NCBI GenBank assembly: GCA_965220725.1
Contig: OZ244840.1
Location: forward strand, 1,152,548-1,216,547
Source of the DNA: Arenicellales bacterium
GTDB lineage: Bacteria; Pseudomonadota; Gammaproteobacteria; Arenicellales; JAJDZL01
DNA length: 64,000 bases
Direction: 5' to 3'
In this document: positions 9,628 to 27,708 of the stretch, piece by piece
Position numbering within the stretch: the first letter of the stretch is position 1
How the letters are laid out: every line of letters starts with the position of its first letter
Made by a program: the position numbers and the translations under genes
Notes under the pieces: generated by a model
The model's input: the letters and a program-made list of their open reading frames with translations, nothing else
What the model was told of the DNA's origin: nothing
Database searches by the model: none

Positions 9628-11079
9628 ATGGAAGTTCATTCACAGGTTGATTACGACACCCGGATTCCGAACAACGTCGGACTGAGTTCGGATCGCAAGG
9701 TTCTAAGGGCCTTGGAAAAATGGCATCCGAATTTTCTTGGTTGGTGGGAAAACCTGATTCCACAGCAGTATCAGAAATCCAAGGTCTATCTTCGAACTGC
9801 TGTCTCAGCGGACTCCAAGGGATGGGCCAAGTTCGACTACGTCAAGATGCCCAGTTACCGTTGGGGCGTCCTGCTCGCGCCACCTCAGGAAGGGCGCACC
9901 GTTCCCTGCGGTGAACATTACAGTGAACCTGCATGGCAGGAAGTGCCTGGTGAGTACCGCAATATGCTCAAGCGGCTGATCGTCATCCAAGGTGATACCG
10001 AACCCGCGTCAGTCGAGCAACAGCATTTGCTTGCGCTGACCGCGCCATCGCTATACGACATGCGTAATCTGTTCCAGGTCAATGTGGAGGAAGGCCGGCA
10101 TCTTTGGGCAATGGTCTATCTGCTGTTCAAATACTTCGGAAGAGATGGACGCGAGGAGGGTGAGGAACTTCTTCGCCGTTCGTCCGGATCCGAAGAGACA
10201 CCGAGACTGCTGGGTGCTTTCAATGAGAAGACTCCCGACTGGCTGTCTTTTTTCATGTTCACCTTTTGCACTGACCGCGATGGGAAGATGCAGTTGGAAA
10301 GTCTGGCGCAGTCCGGATTCGACCCGCTCAGTCGAACCTGTCGCTTCATGCTGACTGAAGAGGCGCATCATATGTTTGTCGGTGAGAATGGTGTGACCAG
10401 AACCATCCAAGCCACCCTGGATGCGATGAACAATGCCGGAATCGACGATCCTTTTGATGTTAATCGAATTCGCTCACTGGGGGTCATTGATCTGCCGACA
10501 ATTCAGAAGAAACTGAATCTGCACTTTTCACTCAGCCTTGATCTGTTCGGTCAGGAAATGTCAACAAATGCTGCTAATGCCTTCAATGCCGGGATCAAGG
10601 GACGCTACATGGAATCCAAACTCGAAGATGACCATCAACTGGCTGGCGATACCTATTCCGTGAGAACAGTCAAAGATGGAAAGATCGTCGCTGAGGACGT
10701 GCCGGCACTGACTGCGATCAACATGCGATTAAGGGACGATTATGTGCAAGATGCCTCAAAAGGCGTCAAGAGGTGGAACAGCCTGATACGACGCAACCAC
10801 ATTCAATTTGAGATGAGACTGCCGAGTGAGGCGTTCCATCGCCAGATTGGTGTCTTTTCGTCAATTCAAGCTGATCTCGAAGGCAACATCATCAGTGAGG
10901 AACAGTGGGATGCAAATGTTGAACAGTGGCTACCCACCCAGGCGGACAGCGATTTCATCCAATCGTTGATGAAACCGTGTTACGAACCGGGGAAGTTTGC
11001 CAGCTGGATTGCCGCGCCGAGAGTCGGCATCAATAACATGCCTGGAGATTTTGAGTACGTCAAACTGCACATGGCTTGA
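9628..11079 (+). CDS. boxB: Benzoyl-CoA 2,3-epoxidase, di-iron oxygenase subunit BoxB
   Basis: 483 aa. It starts with DYDTRIPNNVGLSSDRKVLRALEKWHPNFLGWW and has di-iron EExH-type motifs (VEEGRHLWAM, LTEEAHHMFVG). Confidence 0.85.
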   Translation: MEVHSQVDYDTRIPNNVGLSSDRKVLRALEKWHPNFLGWWENLIPQQYQKSKVYLRTAVSADSKGWAKFDYVKMPSYRWGVLLAPPQEGRTVPCGEHYSEPAWQEVPGEYRNMLKRLIVIQGDTEPASVEQQHLLALTAPSLYDMRNLFQVNVEEGRHLWAMVYLLFKYFGRDGREEGEELLRRSSGSEETPRLLGAFNEKTPDWLSFFMFTFCTDRDGKMQLESLAQSGFDPLSRTCRFMLTEEAHHMFVGENGVTRTIQATLDAMNNAGIDDPFDVNRIRSLGVIDLPTIQKKLNLHFSLSLDLFGQEMSTNAANAFNAGIKGRYMESKLEDDHQLAGDTYSVRTVKDGKIVAEDVPALTAINMRLRDDYVQDASKGVKRWNSLIRRNHIQFEMRLPSEAFHRQIGVFSSIQADLEGNIISEEQWDANVEQWLPTQADSDFIQSLMKPCYEPGKFASWIAAPRVGINNMPGDFEYVKLHMA

Positions 11080-11162
11080 GTTGATCGGCGAATACCGGGG
11101 ATTTCACAGTGCATCATCTTCATTCATCGAATCTTCGCATCTTTTAACCAAGAAAGCTGTTG

Positions 11163-12074
11163 ATGCTTGATTTGTCTTCATTAAACGAATATCAGCGCAA
11201 AGCGGTTACAGAAATAAACCAGTCATTGCTGGTGGTCGCTGGTCCGGGAGCTGGAAAGACTCATGCATTGACTTGGCGAGTAGCGAACACGATCGAAAGC
11301 ACACCTGGCAAGCATTTCCGAATTTTAGGACTCACACTCACAGAAAAAGCAGCGACAGAAATACGAAGAAAATACTTGAGTCTGGTTGATGGTCAGCAAA
11401 ACCGGATTAATCTCACAACGTACCACGGGTTCGCTGCTGAAGTATTACGCCAACACGGCAGTCATATTGGACTGAAGCCTTCGTTTTTGGTTTTTGGGCA
11501 AGATTCTGAACGTAAGGCGTTACTCGAAGATGCAATAAGACTTGTTGACTCCAGTAATCATTTTCCAAATAGCGAACAGTTGCTTCCATTAATTTCCCGA
11601 TTGACAGAAAGTAATGTAGAACCGGAAGACGCGAAGCAAATTCTTGAACAGGGATCGTTTCAACACCCGGAAGAACTAGCACTAATTTATAAAAGCTACC
11701 GCGAGTTGATGATCAAGAACGATCAACTGGATTTCAGTGGATTAATCGCGGAAGCAACAAGTTTACTGAAGCGAAGTTCTGGAATTCGGAAACTTGTCCA
11801 TAAAATCTACACGCATATTTGTGTGGATGAAATCCAAAATATCAATTCCGCGCAGTACAACCTTCTTCTTCAGATTACAAGCACTGAATCAACTGTTCTA
11901 TTTTTTGTAGCTGATGAAGAACAGGTAGTTGACCAGTGGAATGGCGCGAATCCTTCCCGTTTAGACGATGTTCGAAATCATTTTAGGTTGCAACCATTGT
12001 ACTTTCCGGAAACATATCGTTGCCCGCCCGAGATCACTCAAATTGCGGATCGTTTGAATTCTGTTTATCACTGA
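11163..12074 (+). CDS. UvrD/Rep-type SF1 helicase, N-terminal half (motifs Q-IV), ends at an in-frame TGA
   Basis: Motifs are YQRKAV (Q), VVAGPGAGKTHAL (I), TYHGFA, VDEIQNINSAQ (II), VADEEQVVDQWNGAN (III) and YRCPPEI (IV). The stop TGA at 12072-12074 is in the same frame as the next ORF. Confidence 0.8.
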   Translation: MLDLSSLNEYQRKAVTEINQSLLVVAGPGAGKTHALTWRVANTIESTPGKHFRILGLTLTEKAATEIRRKYLSLVDGQQNRINLTTYHGFAAEVLRQHGSHIGLKPSFLVFGQDSERKALLEDAIRLVDSSNHFPNSEQLLPLISRLTESNVEPEDAKQILEQGSFQHPEELALIYKSYRELMIKNDQLDFSGLIAEATSLLKRSSGIRKLVHKIYTHICVDEIQNINSAQYNLLLQITSTESTVLFFVADEEQVVDQWNGANPSRLDDVRNHFRLQPLYFPETYRCPPEITQIADRLNSVYH

Positions 12075-12095
12075 CACCACAGGAAAGAGACTCAG

Positions 12096-15000
12096 ATGAC
12101 TACTCCAACTTCAGATTTCCACGACGAGTCAAGATTTGCGGTGCACGAGTTCGCCAACCTAGATCAAGAGTTGGACTGGGTCACGAACTGCATCGCCAAG
12201 ATTGAGCCGCATGAACGGTGGACCTGTGCTGTCCTGGCGCGTCACAGAAGACTCATTGATCAAGCTGTCAATGCTTTCGAAGAAAAGGGAGTCGCAACGT
12301 ACGATCCTACTCGACCAAATGAGTTCAATAGTTTCGAGTTTAGATGGTTGTACTTCGTCCTTAAACTGGCAAACTCGAGAAGTAATCGTCAGTATTTGCA
12401 AGAAGTGTGTGTTACCTTTCAACATCTGGAAAACACAAAAGTCGATATTGGGTACGTCATCGCGCACGCTTGCATCAACGAAGGAGACTATCTTCGAAGT
12501 TGGGTTGAACTGGTAACCGCGCAGAACAAATTACCGGAACCCACGCTTGAGTTAATCGAGAACTCTCTCAAACCTGACCTACTGGAATTAGTCGATTTCC
12601 GAAAGTTTCAAGCTGCTGCAATTGCTTGGTTTGACGCTCGTTTGAGTTCAGACTCTGATGAAAATGAAGTCCTTCGTCAATACAGAGAGGAAAAGCAGGT
12701 TTGGAATCACTTTGTCCAGACTATCATCCATGACCATAGAGTCGAATTTGCTCCACTTAACACATTCTTGCAGGAGATTGACCTTCAATCACGACCTCCG
12801 ATTAAACAGCCTGATGCAGTAACCTGCGCCACCATACACTCATCCGGAGGGATGAACTTTCGTCACGTCTACCTGATCGGAATGGTTGAAGGTGAACTAC
12901 CGAGTCAGATGGCTTTCAAAAAGGGAAGTGACAGCCGAAAAATGGAAGAAGAGAGAAGAATTTGCTTTACCGCCATCACCCGCACCCAAGATTCGCTGAC
13001 GCTCACCTACTCGAAAGAGGTATTTGGTCAACCAAGTGAACCTTCTCGCTTTCTGTCCTACATGGGACTGATTCAAGACTGTCAATGTGTTAAGTGTCCA
13101 TCAGCAGTTGGACGTCTTTTCGTTAATTCCCAAACCAAGATCGACAAAAACACAGCACTCGAATTATTGCGGAAATTAACAAACGACCCCAATGCCAATT
13201 TTCGAAGTGGTCAATGGGAAGCCATTGACAGACTTGTCAACCATCGAAAGAGTATGGTTGTTGTGCAGAGAACAGGCTGGGGAAAAAGCACTGTTTACTT
13301 TATCGCCACCCGATTCCTTAGGGATCAGGGATTTGGGCCAACTCTCATTGTCTCCCCGCTATTGGCGTTGATGCGCAACCAGATTGAGGCTGCCAGTCGA
13401 CTTGGGCTGCGTGCGGAAACCATAAATTCCTCCAATTCAGACAGATGGGAGGAGATTGGAAACCAAATTGAACAGGACCTCGTTGACGTGGTACTCATCT
13501 CTCCTGAGCGTCTTGCAAACGTCGAATTCATGGAGAATTACCTGCCACGTTTCGTGAAAGGTGTCGGTTTGCTTGTGGTCGATGAGACTCACTGCATTTC
13601 CGATTGTGGACATGACTTTCGCCCCGACTACCGCCGATTTCGGAATCTATTACGATTCATGGGTGATGGACAGTTGATTCTTGGAACAACAGCCACTGCA
13701 AACGACCGCGTCATCGCGGATGTACGCAGTCAACTCGGCAACATTCCAGTGTCTCGAGGCGAATTGCAACGTGAATCCATTTCCTTACAGAACATGTATC
13801 TTCCAACCAAAGTTCAAAGACTGGCTTGGCTTGCCGATCATATTCATGAACTGAATGGTACAGGTATCATCTACACACTGACTGTCCATGACACCGTTGA
13901 GGTATCCAATTGGCTACAGGCGAACGGTGTAGACGCACCGGCCTATTATTCCGGTGTTGTCGCTGAAGGCTTCGATGACTCCGATCAATACCGAAGTCAC
14001 CTCGAATACAAACTTCTTAAAAATGAAGTCAAGGCTTTGGTATCGACTACAGCATTGGGAATGGGATTCGACAAGCCGGACGTTGGATTTGTAGTTCACT
14101 ACCAAATGCCAGGGTCTGTCATTGCATACTATCAACAGGTCGGCAGAGCTGGGCGCGCAATCAAGTCAGCACATGGAATTCTCATGTCAGGTCAGGAAGA
14201 TGATGCGATCAACAAGTTCTTCCGTGAGAGTTCATTTCCGAACGAAATCTGGGTAGAACGAATTCTTCAAGAACTTGATAACAGTGATGGATTGACACTA
14301 TCCGAGCTTGAGTCAAAAATCAATTTGAAGTCGTCGAGAATCGCGCATGTCCTGAAATATCTATCTGTGGTGGAACCTCATTCGCCAGTAACCAAGATTG
14401 GTTACAAGTGGTCTCGTACACCTGTCCATTTCGAACTCGACCGACAGGCAATTCAACGCATCACCAACCAAAGAGAAGATGAATGGCAGGAAATGCAACA
14501 GTACATTGAGGAAAAAAACTGTCTGATGGAATTTCTGTTGAGGTCACTAAATCAACCAAATCCAACCCGTTGTGGGAAGTGCTCGAACTGCTTGGGAAGG
14601 CCGGTTATCGATGAGTCAATTTCTGACGCTACCTTCCAAAAAGCCGTCCAGTTCCTGAGTAACCCCGAAACCAAGCTGAAACCAAAAATTCAAGTTCCCT
14701 ATGGAGTGTTCCCAGAGTATGGATTCCGAGGTAAGTTTCCTGAAAACCTTATACATGAAATCGGCCGAATAATGTCACGCTGGGGTAATTCCGGAGTCGG
14801 AAAGTGGGTGTCGATAGATAAGTACCGAGAACGATATCGAAACGAAATCGTTGACGAAGTTGAACGTATGTACAAAGACAGGTGGCACCCTACACCGAAA
14901 CCAGGATGGATCACTTGCGTCGGGTCGAGAAATGAAAACTGCAACATTACTGATTTCGCCAAACGTCTTTCTGTTGTTCTACGAATACCGTTTCGTCAAG

Positions 15001-15242
15001 TTGTGTTCAGAACAAAAGCCAATGAATATCAAAAGAAACAGCACAACAAATCGCACCAGTGTCGAAATCTTGATGGCGTGTTTGAAATCAGGGGAGAAGT
15101 AGACCCGACTGCGGTGCTTCTGGTTGATGACGTGTACGATTCGGGATGGACACTTGCAATCATTTCAGCCCTGCTTCTGCAGGCAGGCAGTGGCCCGGTT
15201 TTTCCACTTGCATTGGCAAGTGCAACCTCTAAGGACTATTGA
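12096..15242 (+). CDS. Fusion protein: UvrD C-terminal half + RecQ-type SF2 helicase + ComFC-like phosphoribosyltransferase-fold domain
   Basis: - UvrD motifs V/VI: ATIHSSGGMNFRHVYLIGM and EERRICFTAITRTQDSLTLTY.
- RecQ motifs: FRSGQWEAI, VQRTGWGKS, LIVSPLLALMRNQ, VDETHCISDCGHDFRPDY, LGTTATA, STTALGMGFDKPDV and YYQQVGRAGR, plus the Zn motif CLMEF...RCGKCSNC.
- C-terminal PRTase signature: CRNLDGVFEI...VLLVDDVYDSGWTLA. Confidence 0.8.
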   Translation: MTTPTSDFHDESRFAVHEFANLDQELDWVTNCIAKIEPHERWTCAVLARHRRLIDQAVNAFEEKGVATYDPTRPNEFNSFEFRWLYFVLKLANSRSNRQYLQEVCVTFQHLENTKVDIGYVIAHACINEGDYLRSWVELVTAQNKLPEPTLELIENSLKPDLLELVDFRKFQAAAIAWFDARLSSDSDENEVLRQYREEKQVWNHFVQTIIHDHRVEFAPLNTFLQEIDLQSRPPIKQPDAVTCATIHSSGGMNFRHVYLIGMVEGELPSQMAFKKGSDSRKMEEERRICFTAITRTQDSLTLTYSKEVFGQPSEPSRFLSYMGLIQDCQCVKCPSAVGRLFVNSQTKIDKNTALELLRKLTNDPNANFRSGQWEAIDRLVNHRKSMVVVQRTGWGKSTVYFIATRFLRDQGFGPTLIVSPLLALMRNQIEAASRLGLRAETINSSNSDRWEEIGNQIEQDLVDVVLISPERLANVEFMENYLPRFVKGVGLLVVDETHCISDCGHDFRPDYRRFRNLLRFMGDGQLILGTTATANDRVIADVRSQLGNIPVSRGELQRESISLQNMYLPTKVQRLAWLADHIHELNGTGIIYTLTVHDTVEVSNWLQANGVDAPAYYSGVVAEGFDDSDQYRSHLEYKLLKNEVKALVSTTALGMGFDKPDVGFVVHYQMPGSVIAYYQQVGRAGRAIKSAHGILMSGQEDDAINKFFRESSFPNEIWVERILQELDNSDGLTLSELESKINLKSSRIAHVLKYLSVVEPHSPVTKIGYKWSRTPVHFELDRQAIQRITNQREDEWQEMQQYIEEKNCLMEFLLRSLNQPNPTRCGKCSNCLGRPVIDESISDATFQKAVQFLSNPETKLKPKIQVPYGVFPEYGFRGKFPENLIHEIGRIMSRWGNSGVGKWVSIDKYRERYRNEIVDEVERMYKDRWHPTPKPGWITCVGSRNENCNITDFAKRLSVVLRIPFRQVVFRTKANEYQKKQHNKSHQCRNLDGVFEIRGEVDPTAVLLVDDVYDSGWTLAIISALLLQAGSGPVFPLALASATSKDY

Positions 15243-15243
15243 C

Positions 15244-16824
15244 ATGGAAATCAGTCGCGAATGTAAAGTTGCAATTCACTTGACCGGACGTTTCGGGAAG
15301 TTCGAAGGTGAACAATTCGACCCACTGAAGTCAAGTGAGTGGCATGAGTTTTGCGATTGGTTGAGTCAAAACAGCGTAGCGATTGGTGATTTGAACGAAA
15401 TGACAGTAATGGAATTACCGATTGATTGGGAAGAGATCAATTTAACTCCTGAACGAATAAGAGATCTCTTGAAGCGAAGATTTGTCTCAGATGAGAAAGT
15501 TCAACGCTGGGTTAGCGCAGGCTTGTGGATGTTGACCTTATCAGACGAATCCTATCCGAAGGAACTTATGGAAAGACTACAAGATAAGTCGCCACCAGTT
15601 CTATACGGAAGTGGAAATCCCGAATTATTGAATCTTCGCGGCGTCGCGATAGTCGGATCAAGAAATGCAGATGCCAGTGATCTAGAATACTCTACGGAAC
15701 TCGCCAAAGATTTGGCTGGTTGCGATTATTCGATCATCTCGGGCGGCGCCCGAGGTGTAGACCAAGCTGCGATGCTTGGAGCGCTGGAAAATGGTGGAAA
15801 GTCTGTCGGTGTGCTAGCAGATAAATTATTGCAATCAACTACCTCATCGCTGTATCGAAAGCATTTGGTTTCTGGTGATTTGGTATTGGTTTCACCTTTT
15901 CATCCCGAAACTAGTTTCACCGCCTGGAATGCAATGGCTCGGAATCACATCATCTATGCCCTTGCTCAGTCAGCAGTTGTCATTACCTGTGATGAGAATA
16001 GCGGAGGCAGCTGGCGCGGTGCGATAGACAATTTGAACTCTGACTGGACTATTCCGTTGTGGGTCAAAAGGTCTGGAAATGCAGCACTGCATGAGTTAGG
16101 CGCATTCTGGCTGCCCGATAACGGAGCGAACTCAATCGTTGGTTACCTCGACACACCTGAGTTGAGTGATCATGAAGAAGTTTTCTTTGACTTGTTTTTA
16201 CGCGTGACGCGAAAGTTCCTGTTTGATGGGCCTAGGAAACTAAAAGAAATAACTGATCATTTTCTCCAGTACGAACTTTCGACAAGTCAAATACGTCACT
16301 GGCTCAATCAGGCTGTCGATAGCGGATTTGTGGAACAAGGAACTGTCGCTCCAGGCAAGTATTCTTTTCCCCAAACAGTCACGAATTACTTCGAATTGTT
16401 TAGATTTAGACTTGAAGATTTACTTTCTGATGGTCCAAAAAAGATTCAAAATATTTCTAAGCACTTCTCCGAAACAGGATTATCTGAAAGTCAAGTTCGG
16501 GTGTGGTTGAATCAAGCATCGTACGAAGGATTCGTGAAGAAAAAGGGGGGCAAACGTGCAGAGTACGCTCTTGTAACCTCTAATTCTATTTTTTTCGAAT
16601 TTTTCACTAGTCACATGCAAAACTTTCTATCGGAAGGTCATAAGAGTCTGCAAGAGACATTCGATCACTGTGCGCAGTTTGACTTGTCCAACCAACAAGT
16701 TCGTGTTTGGTTGGGTCAAGCAGTGGATCAAGGTTCAATCGAAAAAAAGAAAGTAAGCGGAAAAGTGGCATACGGTTCATTTGACAATCAAAAACCGAAA
16801 CAGGGTGAGCTTCCTTTGGGATAA
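15244..16824 (+). CDS. DprA/Smf-family DNA-processing protein with three tandem C-terminal winged-helix modules
   Basis: ATG 15244 lies 1 nt after the upstream stop (the ORF track start at 15124 overlaps the previous gene). The DprA signature is LSDESYPKELMERLQDKSPPVLYGSGNPELL, VAIVGSRNA, IISGGARGVDQAAMLGAL and NAMARNHIIYAL. Confidence 0.8.
   Translation: MEISRECKVAIHLTGRFGKFEGEQFDPLKSSEWHEFCDWLSQNSVAIGDLNEMTVMELPIDWEEINLTPERIRDLLKRRFVSDEKVQRWVSAGLWMLTLSDESYPKELMERLQDKSPPVLYGSGNPELLNLRGVAIVGSRNADASDLEYSTELAKDLAGCDYSIISGGARGVDQAAMLGALENGGKSVGVLADKLLQSTTSSLYRKHLVSGDLVLVSPFHPETSFTAWNAMARNHIIYALAQSAVVITCDENSGGSWRGAIDNLNSDWTIPLWVKRSGNAALHELGAFWLPDNGANSIVGYLDTPELSDHEEVFFDLFLRVTRKFLFDGPRKLKEITDHFLQYELSTSQIRHWLNQAVDSGFVEQGTVAPGKYSFPQTVTNYFELFRFRLEDLLSDGPKKIQNISKHFSETGLSESQVRVWLNQASYEGFVKKKGGKRAEYALVTSNSIFFEFFTSHMQNFLSEGHKSLQETFDHCAQFDLSNQQVRVWLGQAVDQGSIEKKKVSGKVAYGSFDNQKPKQGELPLG
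16180..16779 (+). repeat. Three tandem ~62-65-codon protein repeats (DprA_WH-like wHTH) inside the DprA gene
   Basis: The three units are:
- FFDLFLRVTRKFLFDGPRKLKEITDHF..LSTSQIRHWLNQAVDSGFVEQ
- YFELFRFRLEDLLSDGPKKIQNISKHF..LSESQVRVWLNQASYEGFVKK
- FFEFFTSHMQNFLSEGHKSLQETFDHC..LSNQQVRVWLGQAVDQGSIEK. Confidence 0.7.
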
Positions 16825-16845: not shown

Positions 16846-16875
16846 AAAAAAGCCCTGCCGAAGCAGGGCTTTTTT
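16846..16875. terminator. Bidirectional rho-independent terminator between the DprA gene and groEL
   Basis: aaaaa-AGCCCTGC-cgaa-GCAGGGCT-ttttt: a perfect 8-bp GC-rich stem with a 4-nt loop, an A-run on one side and a T-run on the other. Confidence 0.8.
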
Positions 16876-19076: not shown

Positions 19077-19238
19077 CTGTTAGTTTGAAAATATTGTTTG
19101 GATGGCTGTGGAGGACGAACGAATTTAGAGTGTTGCATTGTCTGCTCCCGTTTTCATTTTGATTAGGGTAATTCAACTCAGGCAAATACTACAGACTATG
19201 ACTCCAGAACTCTGCATTGGAATTTACCAGTTAAAAAT

Positions 19239-19976
19239 CCTGTGATGTGTTGAAACACGACAACATTTCGGATTCTTTGGCAGGGCGGATGCGCATCAAT
19301 CCGATCGATTTACTCAAGGTACTACTTTCCGTTGATTTGACTGCCGGCACACATGCTGAACCGGATAAACCATACATGCAACGACTCATGGCTGGAGGTT
19401 TCCCTGCGGCATTGGAGTTACCGCATGGATCTCACTGGAACAAGTAGTTTGATGACTATTCCCAGATAGTGATTGACCAATACTTACGTGCTCTTTCCTG
19501 AATTCATAGGATCGCCAGTTTTCCCCAACTCTTGGAGTCAACGGCTGCTAACACATCAAGTCTCCTTAATTCCAGTTTATTGGCATCACCGCTGAAAGAA
19601 AGTCATCCATTCGCGGAACAGTTTATCATTCTGCTAGAACAGGTTTTTCTTCTTGAACAATATACCTCCGTGGTACAAAGCCGGGAGCAAACGACTGGTG
19701 AAGAGACCGAAACTGCATCTACTACATACCGGAGTGGCAGCATCTGATTTGAAGATGAACAGTCAATCTATGAAAAACAAAGTTTCGGTAATGGGAAAAC
19801 TGCTGGAATCATTTTTAGTTCAGGCACGAAAACGGCAAGCAAGTTGAAATGACGATCGGTTAGCGTTTTCTCACTTTCGCGACAGGAGCGGTCTGGAAGT
19901 CGAACTCGTCATAGAGGATGACAATCTGTCATTCACTGGTGTTGATGTCAAGGCTGCAAGAACCGTCAATAAACGT
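19239..19976 (+). pseudogene. Decayed, 5'-truncated paralogue of the DUF4143 ATPase gene at 21989-23293
   Basis: It aligns at the nucleotide level with about 22356-23130 (cctgtgatgtgttgaaacacgacaacatttcggattctttggcagggcggatgcgcatca...). It carries stops, frameshifts and a ~40-nt internal deletion, and it lacks the P-loop region. Confidence 0.8.
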
Positions 19977-20307
19977 GAGTATTGATTTAATGACAAATGA
20001 ATAAATTATGATTCTGTATCGCAGACGCACCCATGAGTTCTCGAGAATTTTTGGCAGAATATCCATAAATTTTGCTTTAGCCTATGTGCACGAAAAAGAT
20101 GAAGGTTTCGATATTGAAATTTTCACTTGGAATACAAGTCGCATAGTCGTGAATCAAGGATTTCCTAAGTGTATTGGTTCGTGAACCAGTACATAGAGAC
20201 CGTCTACAGATAGATATAATTTACACTTGAACTGATGGTGCAGAATTAGGTTTTTAGAGAACTGGAAGTGAACTAACCGATCTCAAATTCTTGAGGGTAT
20301 ATTAAAC

Positions 20308-21117
20308 TTGAACACAAAAATAGATAAAGACTTTGATACCGCTTTTAAACTTGACAAAAATAAACTTGAGAATTTGTGCAATTTACTTCGCGATAGAGTT
20401 GGAGACATCAAATTAATCGCAAAGTGTAATGACTATGCAGTGCGGGAATTTGAGTCCTTCGAAGAAATTGAGAAATTCGATAATACAGATGATTGCAAAA
20501 TAATTGAATTAACAATTTCCTCAGTCTCGCAGAGTGACACACGTCTTTACGCAAAGATCAATTTCGAATCAGAAACAAAATCAAAATATTCAAAATTCCA
20601 TAGTTTTAGTTCGAGTAAGATTTATGTCACCGGAAGGGATGCGGACGTACGAGTCCTCTGTTCCGATATAGAAAATAAAATTAATATGCTACGCCCTTGG
20701 TACTTCCGCTATTCAAAAATTAAAGGAACCTACATTTCAACTGTGTTTCTTATTTCAATTTTCATCATCGCTTACGTTGGACATGTTTACGTTAGACAAA
20801 GTTACTTCGGACTTCCGGACTCCTTAGAAATTGACAGAACAACTACTCTACATGAGTATGTCCAAATGTTTCTAAATGTGATGTTGTTTTTCTTTATTTT
20901 TTCGGTCTCTTACTCGATTTTATCTCCCTTTCTCAATTCACTATGTTCGTGGCTCTTTGGATTGAGAATCAAGTATTTTCCTTCGGGCGTAATCTTGCTC
21001 GGCCATCAGTTGACCAATGAGAGTGATTTAGATAAAACACGCCGAGCATTTCTAATTTGGGTGAAAGGTTCTATTGCAACGGCTGTTTTAGCTTTGGTAG
21101 TTTCTGTCGTGGATTGA
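20308..21117 (+). CDS. Hypothetical membrane protein (soluble N-domain + ~3 TM helices), very AT-rich
   Basis: TTG start. There is no recognisable motif in the first ~140 aa. Hydrophobic segments are ISTVFLISIFIIAYVGHVYV, MFLNVMLFFFIFSVSYSILSPFL and FLIWVKGSIATAVLALVVSVV. One 60-nt line I counted (20341-20400) has 18 G+C. Confidence 0.5.
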   Translation: MNTKIDKDFDTAFKLDKNKLENLCNLLRDRVGDIKLIAKCNDYAVREFESFEEIEKFDNTDDCKIIELTISSVSQSDTRLYAKINFESETKSKYSKFHSFSSSKIYVTGRDADVRVLCSDIENKINMLRPWYFRYSKIKGTYISTVFLISIFIIAYVGHVYVRQSYFGLPDSLEIDRTTTLHEYVQMFLNVMLFFFIFSVSYSILSPFLNSLCSWLFGLRIKYFPSGVILLGHQLTNESDLDKTRRAFLIWVKGSIATAVLALVVSVVD

Positions 21118-21154
21118 GCAAGACAGCATTATTGGATAGCGGCAACATTACACT

Positions 21155-21480
21155 TTAGCTAGTTGTGGGAGTGTGTTTGCTCATTAGACTAGATTTAGTC
21201 ACCAGATTAATCGAGTTAGCCATCCCATGATACCGAAGACCGCCAACATTAAAACCAGATGCAACACAATGTGAAACAAAGGTGGCGTTGCGCTTGGCAG
21301 TGATGGTCGGCATGGCCGTCAGTGAGGTGCGTTCCGGCAATCCACAACGGATGCGCTCGCTGACGTTGCCGTTGGCAGCTTAGGGCATCCCGCAAATTCC
21401 CTGAACCGATCATGCCCGCAGCGCCCGGCAGGGTGGGACGCGCTTCGGATCCGGATCTGCACGACCAGCTGATGTCGAAA
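21155..21480 (-). pseudogene. Fragment of a TrpB2-like (PLP-dependent) gene
   Basis: [22 protein letters not shown] parallels [22 protein letters not shown] of the intact gene at 27709-29067. Upstream, in another frame, SEARPTLPG parallels [12 protein letters not shown]. The fragment is frameshifted and truncated, and it forms a locally GC-rich patch in AT-rich surroundings. Confidence 0.45.
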
Positions 21481-21873
21481 CCTGAAAAAACCATAGTTTC
21501 GCGCCCGCGAGAGCCTCGCTTTCGGAAAATGTCAGAGATTTTCATCAGTGAATTTTGGAACATCCCATGAAATTTGCTAATCTGCACGGACCAACGAAAC
21601 TGACTAAAAAATTGTTTGGATGGTTGTGGAGGACGAACGGATTTCGAGTGTTGCGCTTTGTGAATACAGATTGGTCTCCTCTTGCAATTGCTTGGTCGAA
21701 ACGAATTTGAAAGTCTCTGGTGTGTTCGAATATCCAAAGAAGCGACTCAGACAAATGCCGCTCACTACAGCAACAGAACTCTGAAATGGAACCTAACTAG
21801 TAAGGCATCGTCAATTTGACTGCGCTATTTCGACTAAGCCGACATAGATCGCAGGTTTCAGAGAAGTTATTAT

Positions 21874-21955
21874 TTTCATTTAGCCAACAATGATTTTTCA
21901 AAATGCCTATACTATTTTTTCATTCAGCCAATAATGAATCTTCAGTTTGCCTTAG
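21874..21955 (+). repeat. Array A: four 16-nt direct repeats at exact 22-nt phasing (consensus TTTCAnTnnGCCnAnA)
   Basis: The four repeats are 21874 tttcatttagccaaca, 21896 tttcaaaatgcctata, 21918 tttcattcagccaata and 21940 cttcagtttgccttag. The array ends 34 nt before ATG 21989. Confidence 0.75.
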
Positions 21956-21988
21956 TTTGTCTGCAAGGAGAATGTCCTAGAACTTACC

Positions 21989-23293
21989 ATGCCAAGTAAC
22001 AGCTACTACCCTCGTTACATACATCACCAAGTAGTTGAAGCACTGGAATATTCTCCAGTTGTGCTGATCCAAGGTCCGAGACAGTGTGGGAAGTCGACAC
22101 TCGCTCGAACGTTTCTTGATCCTAAGGATGGTGGCCAGGAATCGAGTACTGAGCAGAAATTCAATGCAAACCGCTACATCACTTTTGATGATCCGGAACA
22201 ACGTGAATTGGCTGATTTTGCTCCTTCAGGCTATCTCGCCTCATTGCCCGACAAAGTGATATTCGACGAAGTCCAAAAGGCTCCGCAACTGTTTGAAGCC
22301 ATCAAGATGTATGTTGACCGCAATCGCAGACCAGGAATGTTTCTGTTGACGGGTTCCTGTGATGTATTGAAACAAGACAACATTTCGGATTCTTTGGCAG
22401 GGCGGATGCGCATCATTCGGATGGACCCTCTGGCACAGTGCGAAATAGAGCAAACCCGACCGAATTTACTCGATGTACTCCTTTCCGGTGAGATAACTAT
22501 CGGCAGATATGCTGAGCCGGATAAACCATTCATACAACGACTCACAGCTGGAGGTTACCCTGATGTATTGAAGTTGCCGCGTGAATCTCTCCGGATCAAG
22601 TGGTATGACGACTATTCCCGATCAATGATTGACCGAGACCTACGGGATATTTCCCGAATTCACAGTATCGCCAGCTTGCCCCAGCTCTTGGAGTCAGCGG
22701 CGGCTAACACATCAAGCCTCCTTAATTCCAGTTCACTGGCATCGCCGCTGAAAGAGAGTCATCCAACCGTGAAAAAGTTTATCTTTCTGCTTGAGCAGAT
22801 TTTTCTTCTTGAACGTTTACGTGCGTGGTACAAAGATGGAAGCAAGCGACTGGTGAAGAGACCAAAACTGCATGTACTGGATACCGGAGTCATAGCATCT
22901 CTCCTGAACATGAACAGCGAGACTCTAGAAAACAATGTTCCAATATTGGGAAAACTGCTGGAATCATTTGTAGTTCAGGAACTAAAACGGCAAGCAAGTT
23001 GGTATGACGGTCGGTTATCGTTTTCTCACTTCCGAGACAGAAGCGGTCTGAAAGTCGACCTCGTCATAGAAGACGACAATCTGTCAGTCGCCGGTATTGA
23101 CGTCAAGGCTGCGAGAACCGTCAGTAAACATGACTTCAAGGGATTGAGAAAACTGGCACAACTGAACGGGGAGAAGTTTGTTGGTGGTATAGTGCTGTAC
23201 GATGGCGACACTTGCAGCGCCTTCGGAAAAGGACTCTTTGCTGTGCCTTTGCGAAGTTTGTGGGAACCTCTTCCGGAGTGGCCTTCCTGGTAA
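21989..23293 (+). CDS. AAA+ ATPase, AAA_14/DUF4143 family
   Basis: It has a P-loop (IQGPRQCGKSTLA) and Walker B (VIFDEVQKAP). The DUF4143-like C-terminal half shows KRPKLHVLDTGVIASLL and GKLLESFVVQELKRQ. Confidence 0.8.
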   Translation: MPSNSYYPRYIHHQVVEALEYSPVVLIQGPRQCGKSTLARTFLDPKDGGQESSTEQKFNANRYITFDDPEQRELADFAPSGYLASLPDKVIFDEVQKAPQLFEAIKMYVDRNRRPGMFLLTGSCDVLKQDNISDSLAGRMRIIRMDPLAQCEIEQTRPNLLDVLLSGEITIGRYAEPDKPFIQRLTAGGYPDVLKLPRESLRIKWYDDYSRSMIDRDLRDISRIHSIASLPQLLESAAANTSSLLNSSSLASPLKESHPTVKKFIFLLEQIFLLERLRAWYKDGSKRLVKRPKLHVLDTGVIASLLNMNSETLENNVPILGKLLESFVVQELKRQASWYDGRLSFSHFRDRSGLKVDLVIEDDNLSVAGIDVKAARTVSKHDFKGLRKLAQLNGEKFVGGIVLYDGDTCSAFGKGLFAVPLRSLWEPLPEWPSW

Positions 23294-23327
23294 ACTTTTC
23301 ACAAGGAATAGTCTATAAGGTATCCGC

Positions 23328-24356
23328 ATGAACGAAGAAGTCCGCGACAAGCATTTGAATACAACGACTCCAGGCAGTGCTAGGTTATTTGATCGGGTTG
23401 CGGAAATTCTCGACGAAACTCACAGCCATGTTGCCCAAACCATCAACAGTGAGATGGTCACAGGTTATTGGCAGATTGGGCGCGAAATTGTCGAGGATGA
23501 GCAAAGAGGACAAAATACACCTGACCACGGTAACGCGTTACTACAAAAACTCTCGCAACTACAAAGCAGTGGGGCATCCCTGTTAACACTTCAGGATTGC
23601 AGGACGTTCTACATGACTTACAGGCACAGATTGGCGTCAGACCTTCATCCAGACTTAAGCTGGTCGCATTATCGCGTCCTGATGCATGTCGAGAACGATG
23701 ATGCGAGGAGATTCTATGAGCAGGAAGTTGCTCGTAACCAATGGACCAAGCGTCAACTTGAACGACAAATAAACACCCTGCTCTTTGAACGCTTGCTCAA
23801 GAGCCACGACAAGGACGGTGTACTACAAATTGCCAATGACATGAATCCATCAGAGCGTCCAATCGACATCTTGAAGGACCCTTACGTTCTAGAGTTCCTT
23901 GATCTACCTGAGTCGGAACGTTTAGTCGAAAATGATCTGGATGCGGTCCTCGTGGCCCATTTACAGGAGTATCTGCTGAGACTGGATTCTGGATTTGCCT
24001 TTGTCGCCAGAAAGAAACGACTCACATTTGAAGGAGATCATTTTTATGCAGATCTGGTCTTCTATCACGTGCGCCTCAAGTGCTATGTAATCATCAACTT
24101 GAAAACAGAAAAACTCACTCCTGGCGACCTCAGCCAGATGCAGATGTACGTTCACTATTATGATCGGGAGATATGTACAAACGAGGACGGTCCTACGATT
24201 GGCTTGATTCTATGCACGGAAAAGAATGATGCCGTAGTTGAATACGTGCTCGGCGAAGATGATGAACATATTTTCGCTAGTCGTTACGATTCGGATCTTC
24301 CGTCCGAGGAAGAGTTGCTAAGTTTGCTTCTTGAGTGGCGCTCGGAACACGAATAA
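23328..24356 (+). CDS. YhcG/DUF1016-family PDDEXK nuclease-like protein
   Basis: The N-terminal helical DUF1016 pattern is VTGYWQIGREIVEDEQRG...LSWSHYRVLM. The C-terminal PD-(D/E)xK-like core is YADLVFYHVRLKCYVIINLKTEKLTPGDLSQMQMYV. Confidence 0.75.
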   Translation: MNEEVRDKHLNTTTPGSARLFDRVAEILDETHSHVAQTINSEMVTGYWQIGREIVEDEQRGQNTPDHGNALLQKLSQLQSSGASLLTLQDCRTFYMTYRHRLASDLHPDLSWSHYRVLMHVENDDARRFYEQEVARNQWTKRQLERQINTLLFERLLKSHDKDGVLQIANDMNPSERPIDILKDPYVLEFLDLPESERLVENDLDAVLVAHLQEYLLRLDSGFAFVARKKRLTFEGDHFYADLVFYHVRLKCYVIINLKTEKLTPGDLSQMQMYVHYYDREICTNEDGPTIGLILCTEKNDAVVEYVLGEDDEHIFASRYDSDLPSEEELLSLLLEWRSEHE

Positions 24357-24527
24357 ATCAGGGTATGAACGATACAAGTAGTCGCGAATCCAGACCTTGC
24401 TAACTCGCAAATGACTCAAAAACTACCGCTCTAATATTGATTGATTTCATATTGAACAATTTATCATCTCTGATCACTCCTCAAACTAGTCATCGGGCGG
24501 TAAACAACGTTTCAAAGATAAATTTAG

Positions 24528-24587
24528 TTTCATTCTGCCGATAAGGATCTTTCATTCTGCCGATATAGTTCTTTCAATTTGCCGATA
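24528..24587 (+). repeat. Array B: three 16-nt direct repeats at exact 22-nt phasing, same motif family as array A
   Basis: The three repeats are 24528 tttcattctgccgata, 24550 tttcattctgccgata and 24572 tttcaatttgccgata. Confidence 0.8.
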
Positions 24588-24811
24588 GATCAATTGATAC
24601 AGAGAGAACTCACAATGAACTATTGTCAAAAGATAAACAGTGCGTTAAAAATTTGTCGTACGGGTTGGATGTCATTGTCTGTATACTCTCGTTCTGCTCT
24701 GGGACTGTAAAAATGGTAGGGAGGCGTTACGTGATTTTGGATAGGCAAGGAGAAAATGTTCGACTACACGAGCCGACTAACTTGAGAGATAAACTATTTC
24801 ATACCTAATCT

Positions 24812-25615
24812 ATGCCAATTGACTTCAAAAAAGAACTTCCTGAAAACCTAATACATCTAGAATTTGGTGAATCTGATGCATCTACAACTTCTCAAGATGT
24901 ATTGAGACAGGTCATCAACCAAATCGAAGAGAACAATGAGACTTCGTTCGTAAGTCTATCGTCGTCTGGGGAAGTCAAATATAGCGAACAGATTCAGCAG
25001 GGGAGAAAACCAATTTCCGATCAAAATGAGGAAATTGTGCGTGCGCTGTTCCTTTTACACCTCACGCAAGATTTAGGGTATAACCCAAGCTGTATCGAAA
25101 TTGAATGCAGAGTCGAAGCCCAAGCTGGAAGAAGACAAAGACCCAAATGGGTTGACATTGCGATAAATAAACCAACAGGGGAGCGATGGGCACTGATTGA
25201 ACTGAAGACTCCGAATGTATATGAAAATGAAAGGAAAGACGCGTGGAGGGGGCAGTTATTTGGAATAGCACATTTTGTACAACCACGACCGAGTTTTCTT
25301 GTGTACGGAACTCTACATGACAACATTCAGTCTGATGAAAACTCTCTAGAAAAAGTTTTACGAGTCGAAATTGCGAATGCGACAGAATTCAAAAACTATG
25401 ACGATTTTTTCAAGAATGGTGAACCAACCGATTCGAAATTGGTGGAAAATTACTCTAATCCGCAAAATCCAATATACATCAAGAACGGTGGAAAAGGCGG
25501 CAAAGCACTTGAAGAAAATTTTTCGAAGAGACAATTTTCGACTCTACAAATGCAACTACATAATGTCCTGTGGGGGGGGGGGAGATCGCAGATACTGACG
25601 TATTTAATTTACTAA
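24812..25615 (+). CDS. N-terminal part of a nuclease-methyltransferase RM protein (HsdR_N-like PD-(D/E)xK domain), terminated by a frameshift in a G11 tract
   Basis: It shows EEIVRALFLLHLTQDLGYNPSCIEIE...PKWVDIAINKPTGERWALIELKTPN (D...ExK). The reading frame ends 30 nt after the G tract. Confidence 0.7.
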   Translation: MPIDFKKELPENLIHLEFGESDASTTSQDVLRQVINQIEENNETSFVSLSSSGEVKYSEQIQQGRKPISDQNEEIVRALFLLHLTQDLGYNPSCIEIECRVEAQAGRRQRPKWVDIAINKPTGERWALIELKTPNVYENERKDAWRGQLFGIAHFVQPRPSFLVYGTLHDNIQSDENSLEKVLRVEIANATEFKNYDDFFKNGEPTDSKLVENYSNPQNPIYIKNGGKGGKALEENFSKRQFSTLQMQLHNVLWGGGRSQILTYLIY

Positions 25616-26931
25616 CTCGATTAATACTCGCCAAGATTCATGATGAGAGAACAACAAACAATCATCAGCCGTATTCTTTTCAGATTTTGAATAACGAGAA
25701 TTTGAAGATCACACTAAATCGTATTGATGATTTGTATCAGAAAGCAATGGAGTCACGCTTGAACATACTCACCTCACAATCAGTTCAAGAACCGGGGAAA
25801 GGTACCGATGCACAAATTAAGTTCGCTATCGAAAAAATCTCCCCGCTAAATCTATCAAAAATTGCAATGTCCGAGGGTGGGCAAGATCTCATCGGTGATT
25901 TTTTTGAACGAATAATACGTACTGGATTCAAGCAAACTAAAGGACAGTTTTTCACCCACTTAAATATCGTAGATTTTATGGTAAGGGTAGTGGGACTGAA
26001 AGAATGGGCAGCTCAAAACGTCGAAACTGGTTCACGACCTCCACGGGTAATCGATCCTTCTGCGGGTTCAGGTTCTTTTGTCATCCGATCTATGTTAGAA
26101 ATGTCGAGAGGGCTAGAGGAATTGAAACTTAGTGACAGTGACTATAGTGATGAAATTGAATCGATATTGTCTGAACTTTCAAATACTAAGGCGGGAAATA
26201 GATGGTTCTCTAGCTACGGAGTCGGATTGGAGATAAATCAAGATTTAGGACTGGCTGCACAGGTAAACATGCTGCTACATGGTGACGGCGCTTCTGCGGT
26301 TTTTGCTGGTCCAAAACACGGCGATGGACTCGCACCGTTCGCAGAATACCCTAGTACTTGTAGCTTATTGGCAAATGAAGGTGTCGCTCCAGATTCATAC
26401 GATGTCGCTGTTTGCGAATCATTTGATGCGGTACTTACAAATCCACCTTTTGCATCAGAAATTCCCGAAGATGATCTAGCTCGGTATGAAAAGTCCTTAA
26501 GAATTATCGAGCACTCAAAGAAAAGTGAGGACCTGTTTTGTGACAGATGGTTTCAACTGTTGAAACCAGGGGGTAGATTAGCCGCCGTCATTCCCAATAG
26601 TGTATTGGATAGCAAGAAAGAAAATTGGAGTCGAACTTGGTTGCTCCGCTATTTTTGGTTAAGAGCGGTCGTGTCACTCCCTGCAGATGCGTTCTATCCA
26701 CATACCTCGACAAAAACTTCAATAATTTTCGCTAAGAAAAAAACACTAGAAGAGTCCGAGCATTCCTCCAACCTTGAAAACATCAAAAACCTAGAATCAC
26801 AATCTGACATCTATATGTCAGTGGCAACATATCTTGGGTATAAGCGTACCGCTAAACACGAGCAATCAATCTTGAGAAACGACCTTGAAGCCATTGCGAA
26901 AGAGTTGGAAGAAAGATGTTTATGGCACTAA
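25570..26931 (+). CDS. Gamma-class N6-adenine DNA methyltransferase part of the same RM protein
   Basis: Motifs are DVFNLLTRLILAKIHDE, GQFFTHLNIVDFMV, motif I VIDPSAGSGSFV and motif IV LTNPPFASE. Confidence 0.8.
   Translation: MGGGEIADTDVFNLLTRLILAKIHDERTTNNHQPYSFQILNNENLKITLNRIDDLYQKAMESRLNILTSQSVQEPGKGTDAQIKFAIEKISPLNLSKIAMSEGGQDLIGDFFERIIRTGFKQTKGQFFTHLNIVDFMVRVVGLKEWAAQNVETGSRPPRVIDPSAGSGSFVIRSMLEMSRGLEELKLSDSDYSDEIESILSELSNTKAGNRWFSSYGVGLEINQDLGLAAQVNMLLHGDGASAVFAGPKHGDGLAPFAEYPSTCSLLANEGVAPDSYDVAVCESFDAVLTNPPFASEIPEDDLARYEKSLRIIEHSKKSEDLFCDRWFQLLKPGGRLAAVIPNSVLDSKKENWSRTWLLRYFWLRAVVSLPADAFYPHTSTKTSIIFAKKKTLEESEHSSNLENIKNLESQSDIYMSVATYLGYKRTAKHEQSILRNDLEAIAKELEERCLWH
25572..25582 (+). 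repeat. Homopolymeric G11 tract at the junction of the two RM ORFs
   Basis: ctgtGGGGGGGGGGGagatc. The upstream frame reads W G G G R S Q..stop and the downstream frame reads (GTG)M G G G E I A D T D. Confidence 0.95.
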
Positions 26932-27662
26932 CAACAAAAGTTCAACCGCAAATTTTTCTTACGCCAAACCGTAAGATTAGATTAGACGCTGATTATGCGA
27001 TCTATATGTCTTCACAGGCATCATTTGAATCTGCGTTTGAAATCGAAAACATCTTTACCGCATATTGGATGCCGAAAGACGATACGAAAGTTACGGATCC
27101 AATCAATTGCTATTACTGTGAGATTGCCGACATTGATCACTATGGGAGAATTACGCCGAAGTTCGTAGATTCAAACTACACCAATGTCGATCCAGATACA
27201 AAAAAGCAACTCGACAGAAAAATAAAAAAAATATCAGAGGGAAAAATTGGTAGTGTAAATTCATGGGCGGTACTTGTGCCAAAGACGAGAGTCTACCAGA
27301 AGAAGTTCGGGTTAGTTTCGGGGAATGAAGACTGCAATTACACAACCGATTTGATCGTCCTTCAAGCTGGATCATATCTGTTGAATCTTTGTGGCGACAA
27401 GATTGCAACTGCCACGTGTTTATTGTGGATATTACTGAAGATTTGGCAGATTGGCGATATTCTGGCAGCAGTTTCTAGATGGGGTAAGTCTTATCCTACA
27501 TTAGATATTGAGGACCTGAAAGAAGTCAAAGTAGACCGTGATGAATTAGAGCGCTGGATAAATCACAATAACGGAATCAAGCGAGCTGAGGAATTGGTGG
27601 GAATTGCCACGGAAATCTGTAACCTCGATGAATCTATCAAGAAATTGATTCGCCTAAAATAG
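26916..27662 (+). CDS. Putative single-TRD specificity (HsdS-like) subunit
   Basis: It overlaps the methyltransferase stop by 16 nt. The TRD-like pattern is EIADIDHYGRI...WAVLVPKTRVYQKKFGLV...YTTDLIVLQ...GKSYPTLDIEDLKEVKV, followed by a C-terminal helix. The assignment is by pattern only. Confidence 0.5.
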   Translation: MFMALTTKVQPQIFLTPNRKIRLDADYAIYMSSQASFESAFEIENIFTAYWMPKDDTKVTDPINCYYCEIADIDHYGRITPKFVDSNYTNVDPDTKKQLDRKIKKISEGKIGSVNSWAVLVPKTRVYQKKFGLVSGNEDCNYTTDLIVLQAGSYLLNLCGDKIATATCLLWILLKIWQIGDILAAVSRWGKSYPTLDIEDLKEVKVDRDELERWINHNNGIKRAEELVGIATEICNLDESIKKLIRLK

Positions 27663-27708
27663 GTCGATAGAGTTTCTACAAAATCGCAAGTCCTTCCGAT
27701 CAAATCAG

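Follow-up and report, generated by a model that had tools for sequence, protein, structure and literature searches.

A PsyrTA (RqlHI) phage-defence module whose toxin is fused to half of a split GajB-type protein in an Arenicellales population

We analyzed a stretch of 64,000 nucleotides from an Arenicellales bacterium (Gammaproteobacteria; GenBank assembly GCA_965220725.1, contig OZ244840.1, positions 1,152,548 to 1,216,547 of the forward strand), hereafter the window, and in it three co-directional open reading frames, ORF1 to ORF3, which an original prediction made from the DNA letters had placed at 11163-16824 on the plus strand. The block is a PsyrTA (RqlHI) anti-phage module, situated in a strain-variable hotspot between the box (benzoyl-CoA) genes and groESL. 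What is new here is a population-specific chimera, in which an orphan, split GajB is fused to the toxin PsyrT and accompanied by an antitoxin with a triple winged helix. In terms of genes, a gajB-type gene that lacks gajA, is split by a TGA and has lost its own stop codon has its C-terminal half translated as an N-terminal extension of PsyrT. As the overall best explanation, to which we give somewhat better than even chances, the GajB-derived parts have been kept as an accessory, non-canonical module for PsyrT.

The pair consisting of a RecQ-phosphoribosyltransferase (PRTase) protein and a DprA-like protein is, judging from its sequence, the PsyrTA/RqlHI toxin-antitoxin phage-defence pair and should be annotated as such, because the PADLOC models of PsyrT and PsyrA both match over their full length. 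Residues 351-1047 of ORF2 cover positions 5-688 of the 689 in the PsyrT model (PDLC03928, E-value 1.8e-265), and ORF3 matches PsyrA with an E-value of 1.6e-117. The original prediction had taken the operon for an unnamed new system, which these matches contradict as far as its core is concerned; the UvrD, RecQ plus zinc and DprA domains that it had listed were all recovered with Pfam, and its idea of an anti-phage module related to single-stranded DNA, in an island-like setting, is consistent with the published picture of PsyrTA. Pfam domains in ORF2 include DEAD (7.5e-21), Helicase_C (8.6e-12) and RecQ_Zn_bind (2e-6). The RecQ-like core also matches recQ_fam (1.2e-61) and RecQ from the PDB (2.5e-44), and the cysteine cluster of the zinc motif is invariant in the PsyrT alignment. 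With deviations at 3 out of 61 family-conserved columns, the PsyrT part is an ordinary member of its family, the relatives of which comprise hundreds of proteins of about 699 aa at 57-59% identity, with P0390 reaching 88%. The gene order is likewise that of the family: psyrT is followed by a DprA-like gene in 71 of the 73 metagenomic loci with room downstream (out of 80 psyrT loci sampled), and the toxin also precedes the antitoxin in the loci L086, L089 and L090.

The ComFC-like PRTase domain proposed for the C-terminus of ORF2 was weak when searched for with hidden Markov models (HMMs), i.e. comF TIGR00201 at 2.6e-7 and Pribosyltran at 0.0024, the latter exceeding the Pfam cut-off in the PsyrT homologue P0223. 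An AlphaFold2 model of the last 238 residues, built with 33 homologues, had a mean predicted local distance difference test (pLDDT) score of 74, and the top 50 matches to it in a Foldseek search of the PDB were all type I phosphoribosyltransferases; ShosT (8zvd) is among the structural matches. The predicted structure, together with the comF HMM, supports the PRTase fold and thereby the claim.

ORF3 contains the Pfam domain DNA_processg_A (PF02481, E-value 5.3e-39), also matches a SLOG family, and has matches to DprA and ShosA (9vzo) in the PDB as well as to the PADLOC ShosA models (1.5e-25). Its C-terminal part is repetitive, with a unit of about 69 aa that occurs three times in tandem (residues 311-379, 380-448 and 447-515) at 37-42% mutual identity; the copies match general winged-helix families, e.g. 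TrmB, ArsR, PaaX and FaeA, weakly. Three winged helix-turn-helix (HTH) copies of the DprA type had been predicted; the triplication stands and the DprA type is not supported, since neither Pfam nor a profile search against PDB sequences supported a DprA_WH assignment. A recent duplication was rejected as there is no tandem repeat at the DNA level, and the repeats are therefore old. The triple-repeat antitoxin appears unusual: the 61 other complete PsyrA proteins, of 300-500 aa, have at most one detectable repeat each, and both alleles of this population have three.

The rest of the operon derives from a different defence system. ORF1 carries a UvrD-helicase domain (PF00580, E-value 4.6e-53; domains 1A/1B, with Walker A and B), and the N-terminal part of ORF2 a UvrD_C domain (2.1e-19). 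In the PADLOC GajB model (PDLC00114, 635 positions), ORF1 corresponds to positions 1-298 (4.5e-101) and residues 1-338 of ORF2 to positions 319-633 (6.6e-90), so distributed that the two are halves of one GajB-type protein. Hundreds of uninterrupted homologues, with lengths of 637-640 aa and identities of 42-47%, are colinear with them (116 homologues made up the GajB alignment). The in-frame TGA, at 12072-12074, falls shortly after helicase motif IV and is followed after 21 nt by an ATG in the same frame. From there the GajB-like sequence reaches the normal C-terminus of the family (...PSRFLSYMGL) and then runs through nine codons into PsyrT. In 6 out of 6 neighborhoods of homologues, gajA, encoding an OLD/TOPRIM-ATPase, is located directly upstream of the helicase gene and ends where that gene starts. 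No gajA was found at the locus studied here, where the 83 bp between boxB and ORF1 lack similarity beyond their 3' end, TGATG, a stop/start overlap motif known from gajA-gajB junctions.

At the other end of the fusion, L086, whose free-standing PsyrT is 88% identical, starts this protein with an ATG; the window has AAG at the aligned codon, 13137-13139. The ORF2 frame is open from 12096 and does not offer a free-standing toxin of about 700 aa with a start of its own: none of the start codons ATG, GTG and TTG occurs at the homologous psyrT start, and the only ones available, ATG 13062 and TTG 13167, both lack a Shine-Dalgarno sequence, as does, at least in any obvious form, the psyrT start of L086. 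This N-terminal extension is an architectural variation and does not exclude the protein from PsyrTA, because other family members carry N-terminal additions too. Such additions appear to recur in the family, several homologues having N-terminal extensions of 230-400 aa without a Pfam match and others HhH domains or pentapeptide repeats. The relatives P0157, P0223, P0189, P0169, P0257 and P0161 have total lengths of 940-1090 aa.

Three related assemblies carry the locus (L001, L086 and L171). L001, from ERZ25067264, is identical to the window. L171 (ERZ25072236) has the same 303 + 1048 + 526 aa architecture, with a core synonymous divergence (dS) of about 0.08-0.23 to the window, and its junction is identical, with the same TGA, Shine-Dalgarno-like sequence and ATG. 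From this shared junction it follows that the split and the fusion are real; they are common to a population but not universal in it. Between the gene for benzoate-CoA ligase and the methylase gene past groESL, L086 is syntenic with the window, at about 95% DNA identity in the core, and has a free-standing psyrT (701 aa) and a psyrA (526 aa) directly after boxB. Window positions 11078-13138 are there replaced by an unrelated 154-bp spacer with a promoter-like site. A resemblance between this spacer and the hairpin of the gajB-psyrT linker in the window was rejected (alignment score 14, against a shuffle mean of 13.6).

The PsyrTA of L086 is a different allele, with PsyrT 88% identical (dS 0.51) where GroEL is 100% identical (dS 0.10). 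The ratios of nonsynonymous to synonymous divergence (dN/dS) between the window and L086, 0.12 for psyrT and 0.17 for psyrA, indicate purifying selection. From about 15500 on, psyrA is only 61% identical to that of L086; in the aligned part of L086, at 12360-13710, the identity falls at this point from about 85% to 57-70%, and it is back at 97-100% from the terminator at 16846-16875 onward. This sharp drop and the recovery at the terminator point to a swap of the antitoxin, in which the DprA domain and the winged-helix repeats have been exchanged as a cassette, with the first approximately 85 codons of psyrA going with psyrT. The boxB of L086 (8396-9850) lies on a contig of low coverage (2.88x) and is broken in the gene call into pieces of 276, 79 and 130 aa, probably because of indel errors in that assembly; small indels in L086 should accordingly not be over-read.

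The GajB-PsyrT join is specific to this lineage and not a recurrent architecture. When 1.84 billion representatives were searched exhaustively, the UvrD_C and the PsyrT part were not covered together by any of the best 150 matches, and among the best 120 PsyrT matches UvrD_C occurs in none but the protein of the window itself. Of the metagenomic loci, 43 extend 1.5 kb or more upstream of psyrT, and a close relative of the gajB-like gene was found in none of them. One distinct sequence (L166, the same as L167) has a distant UvrD-like gene, of 579 aa, 160 bp upstream of psyrT and after a DUF3644 gene, which looks like an ordinary defence-island juxtaposition. There (L166, 3008-8984), the genes for the DUF3644 protein and the UvrD-like helicase, which may constitute a separate two-gene module adjoining PsyrTA, lie directly upstream of it, and the antitoxin has 313 aa and no winged helix. 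Two proteins of about 1700 aa (P0002 and P0005) were rejected as relatives, as they have the reverse order, SF2 and then UvrD (SF1 and SF2 being helicase superfamilies 1 and 2). When representatives in GTDB were scanned with BoxB, neither groEL nor psyrTA was found beside boxB in any of the resulting 80 loci, which have at most 78% identity; the source species lies outside that collection. A word-index search with the concatenated 1360-aa read-through product gave mainly generic UvrD proteins and missed the PsyrT relatives, and is no evidence of absence.

Experiments on homologues suggest how the module would work. PsyrT would act as a RecQ-like helicase with a genotoxic C-terminal PRTase, and PsyrA, a DprA-like DNA-binding protein, would bind and restrain it; infection would upset the balance between the two, upon which the toxin would arrest or kill the infected cell. 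The genes are probably transcribed from the box operon by read-through, no promoter-like or terminator-like site having been found on the plus strand between boxB and psyrT, nor in the spacer at 11080-11162. The fusion protein probably begins at the ATG at 12096, which has a Shine-Dalgarno-like sequence in front of it, and ORF2 would be translated from this ATG by reinitiation after the TGA. The expected products are a 119-kDa fusion of the C-terminal GajB half with PsyrT and a 34-kDa N-terminal GajB protein, and the two halves may reassemble; weak read-through of the stop, UGA-C, may also occur. Rather than forming a second canonical motor, the GajB-derived parts would then assist PsyrT, be it in sensing, regulation or expression. 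As GajB of Bacillus cereus alone is reported neither to unwind nor to bind DNA (PMC10681800), a non-motor role for a GajB-derived module is not far-fetched. In a more specific form, which we put forward tentatively, the GajB module was captured and repurposed, with the ORF1 subunit and the toxin-attached 2A/2B half, reassembled or joined by low-level read-through, coupling the sensing of DNA ends or nucleotides to the release or targeting of the PRTase. If true, two defence systems would here have formed a hybrid in nature, present in one population beside a strain without the addition.

The case for retention rests on the comparison between the window and L171, in which ORF1 has a dN/dS of 0.15 and the fused half one of 0.20 and neutrality is rejected for both (P = 2.7e-6 and 3.8e-12, respectively). 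Over the roughly 640 GajB codons there is one stop, the TGA, and no frameshift, compared with about 9 stops in a neutral simulation of the lineage's excess divergence, where at most one stop was seen in 0.5% of the runs. Substitutions at conserved sites are mostly conservative, with a mean BLOSUM62 score of +0.37 vs. -0.35 for random changes. In ORF1 the changes spare the family-conserved columns (0 of 106, vs. 10 of 196 elsewhere; p = 0.017). In the fused half such columns are changed as often as others (8 of 72, vs. 30 of 254), meaning that this half, the one joined to PsyrT, has departed from the conservation pattern of the family. Our reading is that the GajB-derived sequence has been shaped mostly by selection, though with constraints other than the canonical GajB ones, and this combination of purifying selection and changed constraints makes an accessory, non-canonical module the most likely role of the GajB parts.

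A different explanation, possible but on the whole doubtful, is that the gajB sequence is a non-functional leftover of a Gabija system that once stood beside PsyrTA. By this route the locus lost gajA through a deletion, a nonsense mutation arose in gajB, and another deletion took the gajB stop together with the promoter and start of psyrT, after which PsyrTA works despite the ballast, is made from ATG 13062, or is being silenced. Such a history would account for the missing GajA, otherwise present in all six homologue contexts, for the in-frame stop, and for the sister strain L086 living without the segment. It also agrees with the fused half's disregard of family-conserved columns, with no other example of the arrangement having been found, and with the youth of the island between the strains that share it (psyrTA dS 0.015-0.03). 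Furthermore, 41 of the 179 clade columns conserved to at least 95% (23%) are replaced in the window copy, whereas homologues deviate at 1.1% of such columns in the median and at no more than 9.9%. The replacements touch motifs Ia, II, III, IV and V, as would fit a lost motor function, and include DEFQDT to DEIQNI, DDDQIIY to DEEQVVD and SKGMEF to SGGMNF. Among the homologues, however, this loss rises with overall divergence, so that the test alone cannot tell a divergent lineage from decay, and it was rejected as a proof of the latter. The between-strain comparison is more informative, and its low dN/dS, the strong rejection of neutrality, the near-absence of stops, the conservative substitutions and the spared columns of ORF1 all speak against debris, as does the conservation of the Shine-Dalgarno-like sequence and ATG just past the stop. 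On balance, the selection data slightly favor a retained accessory role.

The residue losses and the restriction of the arrangement to a single population at the same time weigh against an accessory role, and so do three further points. A sharply bounded tract at 12300-13000, in which 95 of 693 nt differ (13.6%; dS 0.48), holds most of the GajB divergence and has probably come from a third allele by recombination, so that the low dN/dS may reflect selection in another, possibly intact, context. Outside this tract, the window and L171 share about 99% identity across the island (psyrT dS 0.015), and the split and fused state may be young and have been spread by recombination; given the recombinant tract and the near-identical island, the selection signal is not assignable to that state itself. 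Lastly, the in-frame ATG 13062 could yield a near-normal, free-standing PsyrT, making the fusion irrelevant. Apart from this, the tract implies that the population holds further, unsampled alleles of the gajB-like gene. Efficient read-through of TGA 12072, or a base-calling error, either of which would make the real product one GajB-PsyrT protein of 1359 aa containing two ATPase modules, is improbable. The stop is indeed in frame with flanks colinear with unsplit GajB, and TGA followed by C is a weak terminator in Escherichia coli. Against this, the same TGA is present in the separately deposited assemblies (the source of the window, L001 and L171), and as L171 differs elsewhere by 1-14% and yet keeps it, a base-calling error is very unlikely; moreover, TGA is a normal stop in this genome, e.g. 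at the end of boxB, and the residue found in homologues close to this position is Asn instead of Cys or Trp, with the alignment uncertain by one residue. Less probable still, and largely refuted, is the new three-gene system for processing of single-stranded DNA or for defence that had originally been predicted, defined by a UvrD motor, a RecQ-PRTase motor and DprA. The combination of these domains in one operon is real and common to two strains, but two of the three components match a named two-gene system over their full length, and the UvrD component is absent from L086 at the same locus, has no close relative and one distant one near psyrT in the sampled loci, and was not found joined to PsyrT in any protein matched in the search of the 1.84 billion representatives. 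The expected co-occurrence of three genes holds for psyrT with psyrA and not for the UvrD part, and the double motor is this one lineage's gajB-psyrT join. Finally, the notion that the genes are housekeeping recQ, uvrD and dprA, serving repair or natural transformation, draws on their domain-level resemblance to those families and is already refuted: the NCBIfam equivalog scores are all far below the cut-offs (recQ 252 vs. 640, uvrD 132 vs. 1144, dprA 106 vs. 191, comF 31 vs. 234), the G+C content is low, and the gene content varies between strains, psyrA being 61% identical where GroEL is 100% identical.

The features of the locus are listed in Table 1. The layout was as predicted, with three tightly packed co-directional frames, an in-frame junction at 12074/12096 and one at 15242/15244, where a single base separates the ORF2 stop from the ORF3 start. 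Equally well founded were the AT-rich composition (G+C 0.43-0.48 over 11-17 kb, vs. 0.51-0.54 in both flanks), the upstream neighbor BoxB (TIGR03225, 858 bits vs. a cut-off of 499), which is preceded by the genes for BoxC and benzoate-CoA ligase, and the bidirectional terminator shared with groEL. The hairpin of the latter, with A6/T6 flanks, was detected by folding (dG -27.4 kcal/mol, z -4.75), a simple terminator scan having overlooked the terminator on the groEL side.

Table 1. Features of the psyrTA locus and its GajB-derived part, in window coordinates.
Feature	Position (nt)	Strand	Description
boxB-ORF1 spacer, 83 bp	11080..11162	+	Left edge of the low-G+C segment that L086 lacks
ORF1	11160/11163..12074	+	304/303 aa; N-terminal half of a GajB-type, UvrD-like SF1 protein
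In-frame spacer, 21 nt	12075..12095	+	Between TGA and ORF2 ATG; Shine-Dalgarno-like AGGAAAGAG at 12081-12089
ORF2	12096..15242	+	1048 aa
ORF2 residues 1-338	12096..13109	+	GajB-type C-terminal half, domains 2A/2B
9-codon linker	13110..13136	+	Joins the GajB end to the PsyrT start
ORF2 residues 348-1048	13137..15242	+	PsyrT/RqlH toxin
DEAD	13206-13718	+	RecQ-like SF2 core, Pfam
Helicase_C	13830-14159	+	RecQ-like SF2 core, Pfam
RecQ zinc-binding motif	14463-14594	+	RecQ_Zn_bind
Type I PRTase domain	about 14790-15239	+	Phosphoribosyl pyrophosphate (PRPP) loop VLLVDDVYDSGWT
ORF3	15244..16824	+	526 aa, ATG at 15244; PsyrA/RqlI antitoxin
DprA/SLOG Rossmann domain	15517-16005	+	ORF3 residues 92-254; PF02481
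Winged-helix-like repeats	16174-16380, 16381-16587, 16582-16788	+	ORF3 C-terminus
Bidirectional intrinsic terminator	16846..16875	both	AAAAAAGCCCTGC-CGAA-GCAGGGCTTTTTT; common to ORF3 and convergent groEL

The gap between boxB and groEL behaves like a hotspot at which defence genes recombine. Just past groESL, at 19120-27700, lies another region of low G+C that varies between strains. It includes the PADLOC candidates PDC-S01 (AAA_14/DUF4143) at 21989-23290 and PDC-S02 (a YhcG PD-(D/E)xK nuclease) at 23328-24353, an HSDR_N_2 protein at 24812-25612 and an N6 DNA methylase of the restriction-modification type at 25570-26928, and defence-type genes therefore flank groESL on both sides. In its first part, 19120-22004, the window has about 2.9 kb where L086 has an unrelated 227-bp spacer. 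This part holds a fragmented AAA_14/DUF4143 copy, about 70% identical, at 19307-19974, with short ORFs only, as well as two ORFs without a family match, at 20308-21117 (plus strand) and 21249-21737 (minus strand). Further downstream, a 3994-aa frame at 39217-51201 encodes an RTX-type protein with 33 stretches matching the calcium-binding HemolysinCabind repeat and also a match to HCBP_related.

The locus offers a natural comparison, in which close strains (core about 95% identical) have plain and GajB-fused PsyrTA at one and the same position. If the appendage is functional, the sensor-type module of one defence system has been grafted onto the effector of another, with the states before and after both available, and the locus could help find what PsyrT senses. 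If it is mere debris, the case usefully warns that picking the longest ORFs in defence hotspots can suggest multi-motor fusions that are only apparent.

Among known systems, Gabija consists of GajA, an OLD-family nuclease, and GajB, a UvrD-like protein (PMC10681800, PMC10781630). ORF1 and residues 1-338 of ORF2 resemble it in matching the GajB profile over its whole length and in retaining the TGATG stop/start overlap motif at the gene start. The locus differs in that there is no GajA, and in that GajB is split by a TGA, has no stop codon of its own and is fused to PsyrT. In addition, the 41 clade-conserved residues are replaced, and similarity to the structurally studied GajB of Bacillus cereus is only distant (E-value about 1e-10). 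With the competence proteins, the locus has the same three folds in common, i.e. an SF2 helicase (ComFA), a ComF-like PRTase (ComFC) and the DprA Rossmann fold, although its scores are far under the family cut-offs, the architecture is fused, and the setting is one of toxin-antitoxin and defence functions and not a competence operon. This parallel, offered as a new idea in the original prediction, had already been drawn in PMC4670107 and PMC5512222. ShosTA is a related system, in which the toxin ShosT is a PRTase-pyrophosphatase and the antitoxin ShosA is DprA-like (PMC11961720). A PRTase toxin domain is thus paired with a DprA-like antitoxin in both, but here a RecQ-like helicase replaces the N-terminal pyrophosphatase domain of ShosT, no ShosT match was found for ORF2, and ORF3 fits PsyrA far better than ShosA.

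The closest counterpart is PsyrTA/RqlHI itself, known since 2013-2015 (Sberro 2013). It was found as a toxin-antitoxin pair and described by Russell and Mulvey in 2015 (PMC4670107), where the PRTase domain is the toxic part of RqlH, and RqlI, which has a DprA-like region, interacts with RqlH and neutralizes it, the C-terminal HTH being dispensable. Protection against phages by PsyrTA was reported by Millman et al. in 2022 (bioRxiv 10.1101/2022.05.11.491447). In the toxin of the window, the RecQ-like SF2 core, the zinc motif and the DD motif of the C-terminal PRTase are all shared with this system; so is the DprA/SLOG antitoxin, which ends in an HTH and is encoded directly downstream and co-directionally, and the locus is strain-variable and adjoins other defence genes. 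What sets it apart is the 347-residue N-terminal extension of the toxin, made up of the 338-residue C-terminal half of GajB and the 9-codon linker, with no start codon at the family's usual position, the separate upstream gene for the other half of GajB, and a 526-aa antitoxin with three winged-helix-like repeats, compared with at most one in the 61 homologues.

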